Of a stretch of DNA of 64,000 bases, positions 19,860 to 37,793 are shown one piece after another. Where the stretch lies: positions 127,149 to 191,148 of the forward strand of contig CAILLO010000077.1 of assembly GCA_903835065.1 (NCBI GenBank). The letters run 5' to 3'. The position numbers and the translations under genes are program-made. The notes under the pieces are model-generated. The model saw only the letters and a program-made list of their open reading frames with translations. It was not told where the DNA came from and searched no databases. The DNA is from an uncultured Eubacteriales bacterium. GTDB lineage: Bacteria; Bacillota; Clostridia; Saccharofermentanales; UBA5734. Positions within the stretch are counted from its first letter, which is position 1, and each line of letters opens with the position of its first letter.

Positions 19860-20699
19860 ATGACCCTGGACGCAGCCCTCGTCTACGCACTGCTCGGACT
19901 CTGCTCCGGAACCCTTTCGTACTTCCTGTTCCTGCGCATGCCCGAGCGCTGGATGCGTGACGTGGAGCCCGAAGGGGAGGTCGTTCCGCTGCCCTCGCCC
20001 CGCCTTCGCTTCTTCCCGCTCGGTCTGGTCTGGATCCTCGTCTGCGCCGGATTGTCGGTCCAGGCACTGGCCACCCACGGGTCCGGCGTCGTCGCCGTGC
20101 TGTGCGCCGTCGCACTGGTCCCGCTGTCGGTCCTGTTCGCCACCGACTGCCTGACCCGGATCCTGCCGGACCAGGGCGTCGTCGCGCTGGCGGTCGTCGG
20201 AGTCGTCCTGTTCGCCCTGGACCTCGTGCCGTCCCTCGCGGGCGCCGTGCCCGGCTCCCTGTCCGCGGGCACGCCCTGGTATCTCGAGGCGGCGAGCCGC
20301 GTCGGCGCCGGCTTGGCCGGCGGTCTGCTGCTGATCGGCGTCGGCTGGATCGGAAGCCGTCTGTTCGCCGGCGGTCGCGAGGCGATGGGGATGGGCGACG
20401 TGAAGCTCCTGGCCGCCGCAGGCCTCGTGTCCGGAATCGTCGGCCTGCTGGCCGTACTGTTGGTCGCCTTCGTGACCGGCGCCGTCTTCGCAGTCCCGGC
20501 CCTGGTCCGCAAGTACGGCCACCGCTCCGAAGAACCGGAGGAGGGGGCGGAAGCCGATGCAACCGCCGATGCCGATGCCGCGCCCGTTCCCGACGGCACC
20601 ATGCCGTTCGGCCCGTTCCTCGTTCTGGGCGTGGTCGCGGTTTTGTTCTTCCAGAACGTCCTCGCAGGGATCGCCTCCTGGTATCTTTCGCTTTTCTAG
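19860..20699 (+). CDS. Prepilin peptidase (A24 family)
   Basis: TDCLTRILPD, AMGMGDVKL, MPFGPFL; multiple TM segments; TATAAT at 19795-19800. Confidence 0.8.
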   Translation: MTLDAALVYALLGLCSGTLSYFLFLRMPERWMRDVEPEGEVVPLPSPRLRFFPLGLVWILVCAGLSVQALATHGSGVVAVLCAVALVPLSVLFATDCLTRILPDQGVVALAVVGVVLFALDLVPSLAGAVPGSLSAGTPWYLEAASRVGAGLAGGLLLIGVGWIGSRLFAGGREAMGMGDVKLLAAAGLVSGIVGLLAVLLVAFVTGAVFAVPALVRKYGHRSEEPEEGAEADATADADAAPVPDGTMPFGPFLVLGVVAVLFFQNVLAGIASWYLSLF

Positions 20700-32116: not shown

Positions 32117-33142
<1,026 letters not shown>

Positions 33143-33217
33143 TCAGAAACTCAATCATTATAACGAACGGGGGGGGAATCCACAAGAAGAAACGAACCGT
33201 GCCGGGACCTGCGGGCA

Positions 33218-33823
33218 TCAGGGCCTTCGGGCCGGTCTCGGCCGGCGGACGAGATACCAGGCGAACAGGAAGGCGCCGAGGGAGATGAGGAAGTCGCCGG
33301 CGCTGACCATGTAGGGAGAGAGCAGGCGGACGGGCAGCAGGTCGCCGAGGAAGCCGAGCGGTGCGCCGTCCGGCGCGTATACGTAGTTGGGGGACGCGGC
33401 GATGCGGGCGATGGCGGCCGAGAGCCCCGCCGGGTCGTCGCGGAAGCTCCGAGCGAGCAGCGGACCGACCGGCATGCGCCCGCCGTTCGCGAGGATGGAG
33501 GCGGCGTTGAGCAGGCTGCCGACCAGGATGAGCCGCAGGCCCGGTTTCGCGAAGTTGAGCAGCAGGAAGGCGGACAACGTGGCGTACTGCAATGCGGCGA
33601 ACGCGACGAGCGGCAGGGTCTCGTGGGCGACCAGCGCGGCGCTGCCGTCGGCGCCCGGCGAAAGCAGGAGGCGGCCCATGAGGCCGGTCGAGACGAACAG
33701 TTCGCAGGCGATGGACACGAACACCAGCCACAGGTGGCGGAAGCGCTTGTGGAGGATCGAGCGGAAGGAGCCCTTCGCGAACAGCCCGACGACCAGGCCG
33801 AGGACCGCGGCTTCGAGGATCAC
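33218..33823 (-). CDS. DUF5317 family membrane protein
   Basis: GSLLN...[25 protein letters not shown]; about 5 TM; begins 1 nt after the HD-GYP stop. Confidence 0.75.
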
Positions 33824-33824
33824 G

Positions 33825-35180
33825 TCACGAGGCCTCGGCCTTGTGGGCCGGCGTCAGCTCCTGCGGGGCCGGCGCGGCGGCCGGCAGCGGTTCGATCCGG
33901 TGGATGGCCCGCTCGAGGGCGTCGACGACCGTGGGCGAGAACTGGGTGCCCGACAGGCGCCGGATCTCCGAGAGGGCCCGCTCGCGCAACATGGCGGGCC
34001 GGTAGGGCCGGTCGGTCGTCATGGCGTCGTAGGAGTCGGCGGTGCAGATGATCTGCGCCTCGAGAAGCTGGCCGTCCGCGGAGGCCGTGGACGGATAGCC
34101 CGACCCGTCGTAGGCGATGTGGTGGGCGCGGATGATGCGCACCGCGTCGGCGAGGAACTCGATGCCGCCGAGCATGTGCGCGCCGATCTCCGGGTGGCGG
34201 CGGATCTGCTCGCGCTCCTCCTTGTTCAGGGGACCCGGCTTGTTCAGGATGGCCTCGGGGATGCCGATCTTGCCGACATCGTGCAGCAGGGCGGCGTACC
34301 GCAACGTCTCCATGCGCTTCGCCGAGAGGTCGAGCACGGTGGCCATCCCTTCGCACAGTTCCTCGACGCGCTTCGAGTGGCCGACCGTATAGACGTCCTT
34401 CGCCTCGATCGAGGACGAGAGCGCCTTGATCGTGTCGAGGTAGCCCTTCTTGAGGGAGCTGTAGAGGACGAACGTGTATCGGGCGAGCATCAGCGGGCCG
34501 AAGAAGAGCACGACGGCGACCCAGCCGAACTGCTGGTACATCAGCGTGATGATGATCCCGAGCACGCCGATCACGAAGAGGCTGGGGATCGACCAGAGGA
34601 ACTGGCCGAACCACTGCCGGATCGTGTTGCGTCCCGTGAAGAAGGTCAAGTAGAGCGCGACGGTCCCCGTGTTGACCAGGATGTACGCGAGGATGGCCAC
34701 GACCAGCGGCGCGAGGTTGGCGCCGATGAACGCGAAGAGCGCCGCGAAGCCGGCGAACGCGCGGCCGGCGAGGAAGCCGCCGCCGAGGGCCGCATAGGCG
34801 TAGCCGCCGGCGATCATCGACAGGATGTAGCTCGCGGAATTGAAGAGCGTCTTGTGGACCGGGGTATTGAAGATGTGCTCCCGCTTGCCGTGCCCGAAGT
34901 CCGAGACGGCGCCGAGGACGGAGACCAGCGCGACCCAGGCGGCCGGCACGGGGCCGAACATCAGGAGGGCGCAGAGATTCACGGCGAAGGCGACGGTGAT
35001 CGCGCGGTCCTTGGAGATCACGACGGCCTGGGATTCGGCGATGGCGCCCATGGCGGCGAGGAAGAGCAGGGCCTTCCAGTTGGCGAGGACGGCGTCCCGG
35101 GCGAACCACGTGAGGACGCCGAGGGCGACGAGCCCCACGGCGACCGTGATTCCGAGGTAGAGGACCCAGATCCGTCTCAT
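33825..35180 (-). CDS. Membrane-bound HD-GYP domain protein (putative c-di-GMP phosphodiesterase with multi-TM sensor)
   Basis: About 250 aa of hydrophobic N-terminus, then KDVYTVGHSKRV, LLHDVGK, HPEIG, HHIAYDGSGYP, ADSYDAMTTDRPYR. Confidence 0.9.
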   Translation of the reverse strand: MRRIWVLYLGITVAVGLVALGVLTWFARDAVLANWKALLFLAAMGAIAESQAVVISKDRAITVAFAVNLCALLMFGPVPAAWVALVSVLGAVSDFGHGKREHIFNTPVHKTLFNSASYILSMIAGGYAYAALGGGFLAGRAFAGFAALFAFIGANLAPLVVAILAYILVNTGTVALYLTFFTGRNTIRQWFGQFLWSIPSLFVIGVLGIIITLMYQQFGWVAVVLFFGPLMLARYTFVLYSSLKKGYLDTIKALSSSIEAKDVYTVGHSKRVEELCEGMATVLDLSAKRMETLRYAALLHDVGKIGIPEAILNKPGPLNKEEREQIRRHPEIGAHMLGGIEFLADAVRIIRAHHIAYDGSGYPSTASADGQLLEAQIICTADSYDAMTTDRPYRPAMLRERALSEIRRLSGTQFSPTVVDALERAIHRIEPLPAAAPAPQELTPAHKAEAS

Positions 35181-35284
35181 GCTTCCGACGCTTTCTCCGA
35201 CGCGACGTCCGCGCCGGAAGGGCCAGGGGGTTCAGGAGTACGACAGGCCGGCAGGAAATCCTGGTTCGTTGCATTCTGACCCGA

Positions 35285-35362
35285 TCAGATGATCTTCCAG
35301 TTCGCGCCGCTGGCGAGAACGAGGGCGAGAAGAGCCACGAGAACGCCGATGATCTTCTTCAT
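35285..35362 (-). CDS. 25-aa signal-peptide-like precursor MKKIIGVLVALLALVLASGANWKII (absent from the ORF track)
   Basis: AGGAGGT RBS at 35374-35380, ATG 35362, TGA 35285; genome-typical codons; basic n-region, hydrophobic h-region, small-residue ASGA, short polar/aromatic tail. Confidence 0.8.
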   Translation of the reverse strand: MKKIIGVLVALLALVLASGANWKII

Positions 35363-35498
35363 TTGTGCTGACAACCTCCTTGTCGAGGACTCTACCCCTC
35401 CGCTAAGCAGGTAGGTTGTCACGCTCCGCTACGCCGGCCTGTCGTCCAGTCGGTGCGCGTACGCCTTTCCGCGGTGGCGCGCCGCTTCTCCTGCGCTG

Positions 35499-35590
35499 AA
35501 TGTATCACGCGCGGAAGCGCCGCAGAAGCGGTTGCGCGGAAATGTAATCCGCTTCGTCGAGTTGTAATCCTGGGACGGGAACTGTAAAGA
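35499..35590 (-). promoter_or_regulatory. Putative promoter of the peptide gene: extended -10 plus phased direct repeats
   Basis: TG-A-TACATT on the minus strand (35499-35507); TGTAATCC at 35543 and 35563 and TGTAAAGA at 35583 (+ strand, 20-bp period). Confidence 0.5.
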
Positions 35591-35612
35591 TAAAGGGCCC
35601 CGAGGGAGCCCT
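35586..35612 (-). terminator. Rho-independent terminator after the 35617-36312 gene
   Basis: AGGGCTCC-CTC-GGGGCCCT-TTATCTTT on the minus strand. Confidence 0.65.
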
Positions 35613-35616
35613 CCGG

Positions 35617-36312
35617 TCATTCCTGGGCGGCGCGCCCCGCGCGGCCGAGCATGCGGTTCAGGGCGTCGAGCACGGCGCGGACGACGGCGTCCTCTTCGCC
35701 GACGCCGGCGCGGATCGTAGAGGAGCCGAGCAGGACGAGCTCGCGGTCCCCGTCCTGGAAGGCGACCGCGGCGTCGATCGCGTCGAGGCCGGCGATCCGG
35801 TTCTTCTGGATCTCGAGGACCTGCAGCAGCCCGTCGGCGCCGAAGTAGGCGTGGACGGCCTCGAGGCAGGCGGCGGCCGCGGCGGTGCGACGGCCGCGCT
35901 CGGACGCGGGTCCGCGGGCCTGTCCTTCGAGGGACTGGCCGTCGAAGGACAGCGTGACGGTCGTCTCGACGGAAGCGTGGTCGACGCGCACGGAGGTCGC
36001 GGCGAGCAGGAGGCGCGGCGCGGACCGGATGACGGTGGGCGTCGGGGAGGCGACGGCGACGGTCGGCTCCATGTCGCGCTGGATCTGCGCGATGCTGATC
36101 GTCTTGTAGTCGACGGGGACGCCGAAGGCGGCCATCGTGCAGGACTGGATATCGCGGACGAGCTGCTTCGGGGAGCGGGAGGTGTCGGCGAGGACGTGGA
36201 TCTCGACGATCCGGCCCTCGTCGTCGGTGACGACCTTGGAGGCGGAAACGCCGGCGATCGCGGAGATCAGCCGCTCGATGTCGGACGTCAGGACGGTCGC
36301 GTTCTCGGCCAT
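35617..36312 (-). CDS. Conserved-looking hypothetical cytoplasmic protein; C-terminal half resembles a LeuA regulatory (allosteric) domain
   Basis: AAGGAG RBS; IVEIHVLADTSRSPKQLVRDIQS...ISIAQI; TVTLSFDGQSLEGQARG...AAACLEAV; EDAVVRAVLDALNR. Confidence 0.65.
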   Translation of the reverse strand: MAENATVLTSDIERLISAIAGVSASKVVTDDEGRIVEIHVLADTSRSPKQLVRDIQSCTMAAFGVPVDYKTISIAQIQRDMEPTVAVASPTPTVIRSAPRLLLAATSVRVDHASVETTVTLSFDGQSLEGQARGPASERGRRTAAAAACLEAVHAYFGADGLLQVLEIQKNRIAGLDAIDAAVAFQDGDRELVLLGSSTIRAGVGEEDAVVRAVLDALNRMLGRAGRAAQE

Positions 36313-36399
36313 CTCGGAACTCCTTCTCCCTTGCGGGACCCTACGACCCGATTCTACCACAACCCGGTCGCGGCGAGGGCTGCAGGGGCGGGCGCGGGA

Positions 36400-37713
36400 T
36401 CATTCGAGCGCGAGCATCGCCCAAAGGTTGTCCACGGCGAACACGAGCACCCGGCCGGTCGCGTCCTTGCGGAAGACGGCGCCGTCGGCGAGGCTGTTGA
36501 CGTCGGTCGCGAGGTTCCAGTCGATCCGGTCGATCGCGGCCTTGTAATAGACGGCATCCCCGGTCATCCGGGCGATGCGGGCGGCGATCGCATAGGCCGG
36601 CACGCACTCGTCGGTCGAGACGGGCGAACCGGTTGCGAGGTCGTATGCGGCATAGACGGCGCCGGTGTCCATCACCTGCGTCCGCAGCCAGGCGAGGCTG
36701 CGCGGGTCGGCCTGTCCGACTTCGCAGAGGTGCAGGACGACCCGCAGGGACTCCAGCGTGTCGACCCAGGCATGCTCGCCCGTGAACGGAAGGTAGCCTC
36801 CGGACGCGGTGGAATACGCTTCGGCGTAGAGCGGCAGGTCATCTCCGAGGAGGCCGCCCTGCACGACCGCGAGATTCGCGGCGTAAACGGCCTTCCAGCG
36901 GCCGTCGAGGAGGGACAGCTGGCGCATCGCCTCGAAGTCGGCCTGGGACAGGCCGAGCGCCGCCACGGTGTCCAGGGGGCGCGGCGTCGGCGTCGGCAGG
37001 GGAGTCGACGTCGGGCCGGGGGTCGGGGTCAGGAACGTTTCGTCGGTCGGGGACGGGGCGGGCGAAGGCAGCACCGCCGTGCGGTCGGGGGCGAGCAGCC
37101 CCTGCGCGTCGAGCGTCGCGAGCAGCGCGTCGGACGTCGCGCGGCAGGCGGCCAGCAGGCGGGCGTCGTGCCAGTGGGCGTACCCTTCCGCGAGGAGTCG
37201 CGCATAGAGGAGCGAGTCGGCGGGCGAGGAAACTGACTGCGTCCCGGAATCGGACGGGCGGACGAGTCCGTCGCTCTCGACGAAGACCGAGGCGAAGGCT
37301 TTCTGGAGCGAGAGGAAGGACGACCGGCGGTCCTGCTCGAGTTCGTGCTGCAGGCGGAGCAGCTGGTCGGAGGCGGACATCGTGTCGGACGTCTCGAATG
37401 GCAGTGTGCCGTCCTTCGACGCCAGGAGGGCCTCGGACAGCAGGAACCCGTTCTTGCCGAGCAGCGCCTGCGAGGTCTTCCAGGCGTCGGCCGCGAGGGT
37501 GGCGTAGGAGGTCGTCGACAGGCCTCCGGCCGCGGAGGTCCGGCTGCCGGGCAGCGCGGCGTCGAATGCCGGTGCATCGCCGGTCGTCGCGCGGAAGAAT
37601 CCGAAAGCATAGAGGACGGCGGCGGCCAGCAATCCCAGGCCGACGACGGCCACGAGGACGACCGGCAGCAGGCGGACCTTCTTCTTCCTGCGGAACACGT
37701 ACGCGTCGGGCAC
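36400..37713 (-). CDS. Membrane-anchored GH8/YdaJ-like (alpha/alpha) glycoside hydrolase homologue, probably degenerate
   Basis: RRKKK then TM; SASDQLL, SPADSLLYARLLAEGYAHW, TLESLRVVLHLCEVG, YAIAARIA..GD; Pro/Thr-rich insert. Confidence 0.5.
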   Translation of the reverse strand: MPDAYVFRRKKKVRLLPVVLVAVVGLGLLAAAVLYAFGFFRATTGDAPAFDAALPGSRTSAAGGLSTTSYATLAADAWKTSQALLGKNGFLLSEALLASKDGTLPFETSDTMSASDQLLRLQHELEQDRRSSFLSLQKAFASVFVESDGLVRPSDSGTQSVSSPADSLLYARLLAEGYAHWHDARLLAACRATSDALLATLDAQGLLAPDRTAVLPSPAPSPTDETFLTPTPGPTSTPLPTPTPRPLDTVAALGLSQADFEAMRQLSLLDGRWKAVYAANLAVVQGGLLGDDLPLYAEAYSTASGGYLPFTGEHAWVDTLESLRVVLHLCEVGQADPRSLAWLRTQVMDTGAVYAAYDLATGSPVSTDECVPAYAIAARIARMTGDAVYYKAAIDRIDWNLATDVNSLADGAVFRKDATGRVLVFAVDNLWAMLALE

Positions 37714-37793
37714 GGCGAATCCCCCTATTCCGCCCCAGTATAGCATCCCGGAAGGGTGCGGCGGCGCGGCCCCCGGAGTATAATCGGTCCATC

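Follow-up and report, generated by a model that had tools for sequence, protein, structure and literature searches.

A gene of only 25 codons, enclosed by a structured RNA, was found to be tied across a bacterial phylum to the gene of a membrane-embedded HD-GYP protein, a predicted phosphodiesterase of cyclic di-GMP (c-di-GMP). It lies in a stretch of 64,000 nucleotides (nt) of contig CAILLO010000077.1 from an uncultured Eubacteriales bacterium (GenBank assembly GCA_903835065.1), which is referred to as the window; the window genes reported for this locus and the RNA element are all on the minus strand, in the order upg (encoding a protein of no known family), the small open reading frame (sORF), the HD-GYP gene and a gene of the DUF5317 family. 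Our firm conclusion is that upg, the RNA with its sORF, the HD-GYP gene and the DUF5317 gene form one conserved functional unit, and this module is an operon conserved across the whole phylum. As to the 25-amino-acid (aa) peptide, our favoured reading, which we hold with somewhat less than even confidence, is that it is a candidate in-membrane partner of the MASE9-HD-GYP protein and/or DUF5317, made by gated, coupled translation. To our knowledge, HD-GYP proteins are the least understood of the c-di-GMP enzymes, and we know of no signal for the MASE9 membrane sensor.

A conserved small coding gene

The sORF MKKIIGVLVALLALVLASGANWKII occupies 35285–35362, with its ATG at 35362 and its stop codon at 35285–35287, and encodes 25 aa. 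In the list of open reading frames (ORFs) of the window it is contained in a GTG-extended frame of 45 aa (35285–35422), and an AAGGAGG read from the sequence lies 5' of it, the last G being 12 nt from the ATG. The HD-GYP gene (33825–35180, 451 aa) follows, and the DUF5317 gene (33218–33823, 201 aa) starts 1 nt past the HD-GYP stop; on the upstream side lies upg (35617–36312, 231 aa). The ORFs, the ribosome-binding site and the 1-nt gap between HD-GYP and DUF5317 had been described correctly in the initial annotation, as a second reading of the sequence confirmed.

In the window's own family (f1), orthologues of HD-GYP and DUF5317 were paired in 18 of 24 genomes, and a similar ORF of 25–28 codons was present at 14/14 related loci having upstream DNA, at 67–260 nt before the estimated HD-GYP start. 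These 14 loci have GC contents of 0.35–0.67 and HD-GYP identities of 34–73%. Pairwise differences between the sORFs at codon positions 1/2/3 were 0.36/0.11/0.57, a pattern that argues for a hydrophobic coding sequence and not a purely structural RNA, and the reading frame was unbroken at all module loci examined. A profile built from the 14 peptides gave a single match in the window's genome (E 1e-13; next E 0.69). Applied to 301 genomes of the order, it matched 34, at one place each and all within f1 (33 of the 53 f1 genomes plus the window's own genome, against 0/247 in three other families). The misses in f1 went with the lack of an HD-GYP/DUF5317 orthologue (G007, G010, G014, G017, G020, G022) or with a contig end at the locus (G002, G009, G012). 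Among 401 genomes sampled from the class, 26 were matched by the profile. An exact lookup of six of the peptides in a collection of ~15 billion proteins found five absent and one present without a name. The sORF is, we conclude firmly, a conserved coding gene, translated or at least selected as coding. The initial annotation had held that a lack of similar sORFs at orthologous loci would speak against its proposal; these loci were checked and similar sORFs were present, the gene being real and kept at the 14/14 related loci and at 68/68 HD-GYP loci found through upg (see below).

Linkage and co-loss of the module genes

At the class loci fetched via the peptide profile, a full-length HD-GYP orthologue lay directly downstream of the sORF in 20/20 cases, followed by DUF5317 in 19/20. 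As a less biased anchor, species-representative genomes were searched with the upg protein, and the best 80 of 428 confirmed loci were used. HD-GYP was present in 68 of these 80, and the sORF was found in between in 68/68 (66 by filter, L189 and L230 by eye). DUF5317 came next in 58 loci by tblastn and in two more by Pfam (L193, L194); six loci were too short to judge, and in the two of the 62 judgeable loci where it was missing (L191, L192) an EPSP synthase gene stood in its place. The proposed bond of the sORF to a membrane HD-GYP gene was thereby borne out at every locus (68/68), and that to DUF5317 nearly always (60/62 judgeable). The initial annotation was right in seeing the sORF, HD-GYP and DUF5317 as a unit, and it overlooked the structured RNA and the conserved upg.

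The 12 upg loci without HD-GYP comprised five that were too short, five labelled Actinomycetota/Acidimicrobiia/Frankiaceae and two relatives of the window (L172, L183), in both of which upg leads directly into pta-ack. In L183 (4675–4830) both arms of the long-range helix P1, described below, are intact around a decayed leader, with no sORF, HD-GYP or DUF5317 and with pta next. We read this as a deletion scar, in which the sORF was lost along with HD-GYP and DUF5317. The gene upg was directly upstream in 22/23 loci. Outer neighbours (a 448-aa gene upstream and pta downstream) are kept only within f1, and the core of upg, sORF, HD-GYP and DUF5317 persists outside it. Outside the class, 11/11 true RNA-motif loci carry the module; L154, at a contig end, shows upg only, and L142 is without upstream DNA. 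The module is carried by the cultured Lutispora thermophila DSM 19022, and with such cultured carriers bench tests are feasible.

In tallies over 14 control genomes, DUF5317 was recorded in Thermus thermophilus and Thermotoga maritima, and Pfam MASE9 in these two plus two more controls, with only 2/4 above the cut-off (which two is not stated in the tallies). The joint presence of DUF5317 and MASE9 in T. thermophilus and T. maritima suggests that the pairing may reach beyond the phylum.

A structured RNA encloses the sORF

The leader and the sORF are enclosed by a long-range helix, P1, whose 5' arm (ACGACAGGCCGGCG) lies at 35432–35445 and whose 3' arm (UGCCGGCCUGUCGU) lies at 35240–35253; this arm comes 31 nt past the end of the sORF, and the HD-GYP start follows after a further 59 nt. 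The RNA measures ~206 nt. Between the 5' arm and the sORF are an unpaired motif, J1/3 (UAGCGGAGCG, 35422–35431), in which the AGCG and AG columns are invariant in 30 sequences; the 5' arm of helix P3 (UGACAACC, 35414–35421); a hairpin of 5 base pairs (bp), P2 (35393–35413), with a second invariant motif, UAGCG, in its loop; an A-rich linker; and the Shine-Dalgarno GGAGG (35375–35379), which is overlapped by the P3 3' arm (35369–35376), so that P3 engages the spacer together with the 3' end of the Shine-Dalgarno.

A P1 complement of 9–19 bp was present in the 14/14 first loci and in 18/18 further ones, with G-U pairs that, judged by eye, are compatible only with the sORF-sense strand. RNAalifold recovered P1, P2 and P3 from 14 sequences, with covariation in P1. 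Of the paired cells, 95.7% were complementary as against 30–51% with slid partners, and 17/25 pairs showed compensatory change, including 9/12 in P1; the observed values were matched by 0/500 shuffles on four measures and by 1/500 on the fifth. P1 and P2 were also recovered from 30 sequences of many families, in an alignment (A7) that took 12/14 loci of the first set (without L025, with a misaligned P1, and L030, with a long repeat spacer) and 18/20 class loci (without L096, cut by a contig start, and L108, missed by a filter). The sequence of P3 is replaced wholesale between families and its complementarity is kept. In a model-guided alignment of 69 rows, fitted to the model structure, P2 and P3 together were 97.1% paired with 13/13 pairs compensatory (P2: 99.1% of cells paired, 5/5 pairs; P3 helices: 92–96% paired, 8/8 pairs).

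A covariance model of 12 leaders (R1) detected the element at 64/67 module loci (E ≤ 0.01) and at 0/5 module-less loci, missing L153 and L155 and scoring L142 only at E 0.9. The motif pattern had a single match in the window's own genome. When scanned over the phylum it matched 54/401 genomes, a count that includes chance matches, as a reversed-pattern control also matched many; among 29 of these loci that were checked, 11 had the true form, all with the module, and 18 were chance matches without any module gene. The minimum-free-energy fold of the window RNA contains P1 and P3, and its energy is ordinary (z −0.95), so the case for an RNA structure rests on covariation. Rfam gave no match at gathering score in the whole window, only SpR20 noise in 35100–35700 at E ≤ 5 (13.8 bits, with a gathering score of 45), and no match on the element at the 18 further loci at E ≤ 1; the element is outside every Rfam family. 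By kind we class it as a cis-regulatory structured mRNA leader, its helices covarying and one of them pairing with the ribosome-binding region, and the invariant unpaired AGCG motifs hint at a putative ligand-binding site.

Two observations place the element between cistrons. Outside f1, P1 begins within a few nt of the upg stop, and in Lutispora the best promoter-like site precedes upg and the stretch from upg to HD-GYP contains neither a promoter-like nor a terminator-like site; together they point to an intercistronic element. In the window, a consensus scan of 33000–36500 found no promoter or terminator, the features seen by eye not being called. These are a GC-rich hairpin followed by a U-rich run just 3' of the upg stop (35590–35616, minus strand) and an extended −10-like site, TGATACAT, ~70 nt before P1, which by eye is kept across the genus.

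In the families other than f1, the P1 3' arm begins 2–19 nt past the sORF stop in 17/18 loci, with the HD-GYP Shine-Dalgarno close behind; in f1 this distance is 27–88 nt. The longest f1 spacer, 88 nt, belongs to L030, where it is lengthened by tandem copies of a unit of ~10 nt (CAGTAATCAA). This geometry could mean that the sORF acts in cis, its P3-gated translation remodelling P1 and thereby setting the translation of HD-GYP and DUF5317, with the peptide itself secondary. The position of the sORF inside P1, the short distance from its stop to the P1 3' arm outside f1, the HD-GYP ribosome-binding site close behind P1 and the pairing of the spacer by P3 all suit such a device. The f1 distances do not, and throughout the phylum the peptide keeps its sequence, its length of 25 codons and its helical face despite variable third codon positions, a degree of constraint that would be unnecessary for a pure coupling device; we regard this explanation as improbable.

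The same layout, with 5'-3' pairing that locks the mRNA and a sequestered Shine-Dalgarno, recalls the hok-type and AapA1-type toxin mRNAs, and the product is small and hydrophobic, as a type I toxin would be. Against a toxin stand its single copy, fixed synteny, vertical inheritance across families and loss together with HD-GYP and DUF5317, and PADLOC returned only generic HD-domain noise for the neighbouring genes. Such a function is very improbable. A type I toxin-antitoxin system was rejected as a class, the gene being single-copy, syntenic and vertically inherited, not multi-copy or patchy and mobile (antisense RNA was not searched for).

The HD-GYP and DUF5317 proteins

In the HD-GYP protein, Pfam HD_5 matches residues 254–418 (E 1e-32), and the HD domain is also matched. 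Residues H268, H300-D301, H353-H354, D358, G359 and G361-Y362-P363 are invariant in 31 orthologues; in f1 the residue after the HH pair is Ile/Val, not Glu. By these intact catalytic motifs it is predicted to be an HD-GYP c-di-GMP phosphodiesterase. The N-terminal ~250 aa contain ~8 membrane segments, counted by eye; N105, P107, N114 and N170 are invariant in this half, and E49, S50, H102 and K110 nearly so. Pfam MASE9 (PF20972) matches 17/31 orthologues (best E 1e-12), and the N-terminal domain is probably a divergent MASE9 sensor, the window's protein being assigned to MASE9 because it is orthologous over its full length to the matching proteins. In the preprint that defined it, MASE9 is described as having eight predicted membrane segments and as probably binding its ligand within the membrane (10.1101/2021.11.05.467447).

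The DUF5317 protein matches PF17248 in the window (E 9e-21; 74.9 bits, cut-off 25) and in 28/28 aligned orthologues. Its invariant residues are N106, N113-G-G-x-M-P (G115, M117, P118), D161, S174-x-G-D177 (G176) and G183, and a topology assigned by eye, following the positive-inside rule, would put the Asn/Asp cluster among them at the outer interface of the membrane. In most loci the DUF5317 and HD-GYP reading frames share ~11 nt, and translation of the two is probably linked.

DUF5317 had been proposed at the outset to process the peptide. Profile comparison by hhalign gave probabilities of 7% against signal peptidase II (family A8) and 0.07% against prepilin peptidase (A24), values from shallow alignments with which a distant fold relation is still compatible. 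The profile found nothing below E 1.8 in the Protein Data Bank (PDB), the DUF5317 members share no second Pfam family, the Atlas held no usable match, and no fusion to output domains occurred among 8000 candidates, which is weak evidence. With the gene also missing at 2/62 judgeable loci, a role as processing protease is unsupported. A prepilin peptidase match (PF01478) does occur in the window, on the plus strand at 20112–20495.

Paralogues of DUF5317 occur elsewhere without any c-di-GMP gene. The window's genome has a second copy (G000:C8:24242–24730; L054:1396–2079, minus strand) immediately downstream of a gene for a class I aminoacyl-tRNA synthetase, with no c-di-GMP gene and no match to the sORF profile nearby. 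In one of the two genomes whose locus lacks DUF5317 (L191/L192), a paralogue lies elsewhere, between a yerC-like gene and secA; a paralogue in G303 overlaps the start of secA.

The upstream gene upg

The product of upg is a two-domain protein and part of the conserved core, with no match in Pfam, NCBIfam or the PDB. Its family has 3,556 representatives at E ≤ 1e-3, the 150 best-ranking of which are without exception stand-alone proteins of 197–270 aa, and H39, K49, Q50, R53, D54, Q56 and S57 are invariant in the N-terminal domain. The gene is also found without the module, including in metagenome-assembled genomes labelled Actinomycetota. The C-terminal domain (positions 100–187 of profile A8) aligned with the PDB entry for MJ1094, presumably a YcaO-family protein, at a non-significant E of 0.58, over a stretch that covers a Gly...Ala...Ala motif present in two copies. 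In the Atlas, upg fell among unannotated clusters, and the one structural match was to a cluster with Hfq in 19% of its members, a lead only. A 448-aa ORF (36400–37746, minus strand) lies upstream of upg, adjoins it only inside the window's family and has no Pfam or NCBIfam match.

The peptide as possible membrane partner or signal precursor

The 33 aligned members of the peptide family share a basic N-terminus, 17 hydrophobic or small residues, an invariant Gly19-Ala20 and an aromatic tail of five residues. Small residues stand at positions 10, 13, 17 and 18 in 33/33 and at position 6 in 30/33, the residues between them being bulky and hydrophobic (small in 0–12%, except residue 9 with 39%), and the periodicity has its maximum at 100–103 degrees. 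Variation is greatest in the tail, which is aromatic, with Trp at 22 or 24; its length is 5 in all aligned members and 4–10 in more distant peptides, and its motifs are family-specific. Identity to the window's peptide is 40–60% where HD-GYP identity is 33–44%, so that the peptide evolves no faster than HD-GYP. For quorum pheromones, divergence faster than that of the receptor is usual.

The likeness to a signal peptide noted in the initial annotation was confirmed over the first ~21 residues, which are like those of Gram-positive signal peptides. Cleavage of signal peptides follows the (−3,−1) small-residue rule, and this holds before the tail in 33/33 peptides. The NCBIfam model Phr_nterm matches 13/33 below threshold (best E 9.5e-5; 17.6 bits for the window's peptide, where the cut-off is 25), NprX 6/33 and the PhrK family 3/33; models of lipoprotein signals match too, and the sub-threshold matches together indicate no more than a signal-like composition. 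The AgrD model found 1/33 peptides, at E 0.41. Two known classes were rejected on these grounds: a Phr/NprX (RRNPP) precursor, since the matches are below cut-off and the neighbours are upg, HD-GYP and DUF5317 with no RRNPP receptor, and an Agr-type system, given the lone AgrD match and no AgrB or kinase domain in the module genes.

These features could also describe a precursor made almost wholly of signal peptide. Signal peptidase I or DUF5317 would cut it after Gly-Ala, and the tail, set free at or outside the membrane, would be sensed by MASE9, with peptide signalling coupled directly to c-di-GMP hydrolysis. Such a secreted or cleaved signal, which we consider rather unlikely in itself and nearly as likely as the partner role, would account for the n/h/c layout with a basic N-terminus, ~13–14 hydrophobic residues and small −3/−1 positions in every aligned peptide, for the invariant Gly-Ala, for the Phr_nterm, NprX and PhrK matches and for the constant tail length with family-specific motifs. 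The DUF5317 Asp/Asn cluster, moreover, is predicted at the outer interface, the site of such a cut. It accounts less well for a membrane segment that is conserved at each position with helical periodicity, for a peptide that diverges no faster than HD-GYP and for the absence of an exporter, Opp or RRNPP gene from the conserved core. All NCBIfam matches, those of the lipoprotein models included, stay under the curated cut-offs and reflect composition only; DUF5317 has no detectable kinship to A8, A24, any PDB sequence or a second Pfam family, and the sORF and HD-GYP persist without linked DUF5317 in 2/62 judgeable loci.

We set beside it the in-membrane partner, to which the helix-packing signature, the slow evolution, the co-loss and the probable in-membrane ligand binding by MASE9 lend support that leaves us a little short of an even judgement. 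In our proposed mechanism, the peptide would insert N-in/C-out as a single short membrane helix and stay in the membrane of the producing cell. Its small-residue face (6, 10, 13, 17–20) would pack on the MASE9 domain, on DUF5317 or on both, placing the aromatic tail and Gly-Ala at the outer interface, where the DUF5317 Asn/Asp cluster is also predicted, and the peptide would thereby set or modulate c-di-GMP hydrolysis. The RNA would hold translation of the sORF low or conditional, and a ligand or a protein, upg being one possibility, would be likely to make contact at the two AGCG motifs. The P1 3' arm separates the sORF stop from the HD-GYP ribosome-binding site, and HD-GYP and DUF5317 overlap; from this arrangement the three membrane proteins appear to be made in a coupled fashion, as might be expected for subunits of one complex.

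Several points weigh against the partner role and its mechanism. A hydrophobic core (residues 4–16/17) followed by a (−3,−1)-compliant motif is present in 33/33 peptides, and a core of this length is typical for the h-region of a cleavable signal peptide; the sub-threshold Phr/NprX matches suit a cleaved precursor equally well, and packing alone does not predict the strict invariance of Gly-Ala. The window's own HD-GYP protein has no Pfam MASE9 match at E ≤ 1. On the side of the RNA, no alternative 'ON' fold was found, the stop-to-arm distance of 27–88 nt in f1 means that direct unwinding by the terminating ribosome is not general, and the 69-row alignment, besides being fitted to the model, contains three rows that are probably false, one that is true but weak (L142, E 0.9) and the remnant from L183. 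As upg occurs without the module, its role within it is unproven.

The boldest combination would make the 25-mer the in-membrane ligand of MASE9 and DUF5317 a new outer-leaflet aspartyl peptidase cutting at Gly-Ala, with the tail or the helix switching c-di-GMP hydrolysis without a kinase or an RRNPP regulator, and with the RNA as a new riboswitch or the target of an RNA-binding upg; taken as a whole, we consider it a long shot.

Significance and comparison with known systems

The 25-residue peptide offers a concrete, synthesisable candidate partner or ligand for MASE9-HD-GYP proteins. The locus further adds an unannotated micro-protein family and a non-Rfam RNA motif across Clostridia-like bacteria, and gives a functional context to DUF5317 and to the family of the 231-aa upg protein. 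MASE9-HD-GYP and DUF5317 are already known as families, and small membrane regulators and Shine-Dalgarno-pairing leaders as kinds. What is new here, as far as we found no description of it, is the family of micro-proteins, the motif in the RNA and the constant association of both with a c-di-GMP phosphodiesterase: the literature search, which did not extend to supplements, returned no published account of a micro-protein, an RNA motif and a c-di-GMP phosphodiesterase united in this way, and none on DUF5317 by name. A term search of the accessible text of Weinberg 2017 (PMC5737381) found HD-GYP not mentioned.

Among MASE9-HD-GYP phosphodiesterases, T. maritima TM1467 and S. venezuelae HdgA are known from Galperin & Chou (10.1101/2021.11.05.467447, in the part available). 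The present protein resembles them in fusing a predicted membrane sensor of ~8 segments to a catalytically complete HD-GYP domain, with 17/31 orthologues matching MASE9, and differs in that the window's own sequence has diverged too far to match the Pfam model. The available portion of that work mentions no small ORF, DUF5317 partner or RNA element, DUF5317 being absent from its main text. The small membrane-associated proteins behind c-di-GMP riboswitches of C. difficile, as far as the accessible part of their description goes, have four helices, with helix 4 at residues 40–57, and occur in multiple copies behind class I riboswitches (PMC13724677). They share with our peptide the association with the membrane, the tie to c-di-GMP through an RNA leader and their occurrence in Clostridia; here, in contrast, the protein has 25 aa, is present in one copy, has no Rfam riboswitch and lies beside the phosphodiesterase itself.

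The likeness to type I toxin mRNAs is one of architecture, a long-range helix around a small hydrophobic ORF with the ribosome-binding region paired; the gene here differs in being single-copy, syntenic, vertically inherited and tied to HD-GYP. In the hok and AapA1 mRNAs, long-distance 5'-3' pairing is likewise combined with a paired ribosome-binding region. With the Phr, NprX and SHP precursors the peptide shares its tiny size, basic N-terminus and hydrophobic signal-like region, along with the sub-threshold Phr_nterm and NprX matches, and the length of the Phr pentapeptide equals that of the five-residue tail; it differs from them in having no pro-region, no RRNPP receptor or Opp in the core and a hydrophobic segment that is conserved position by position. 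MgrB and SafA are small membrane-protein regulators of PhoQ. Like them, our peptide has fewer than 50 aa and a single predicted membrane helix, and its presumed effect would likewise be on a signalling enzyme's membrane domain. It has no sequence kinship to either, its presumed target is a phosphodiesterase and not a kinase, the interaction here is inferred, and, unlike MgrB and SafA, it is encoded in the operon of that presumed target, inside a structured RNA.

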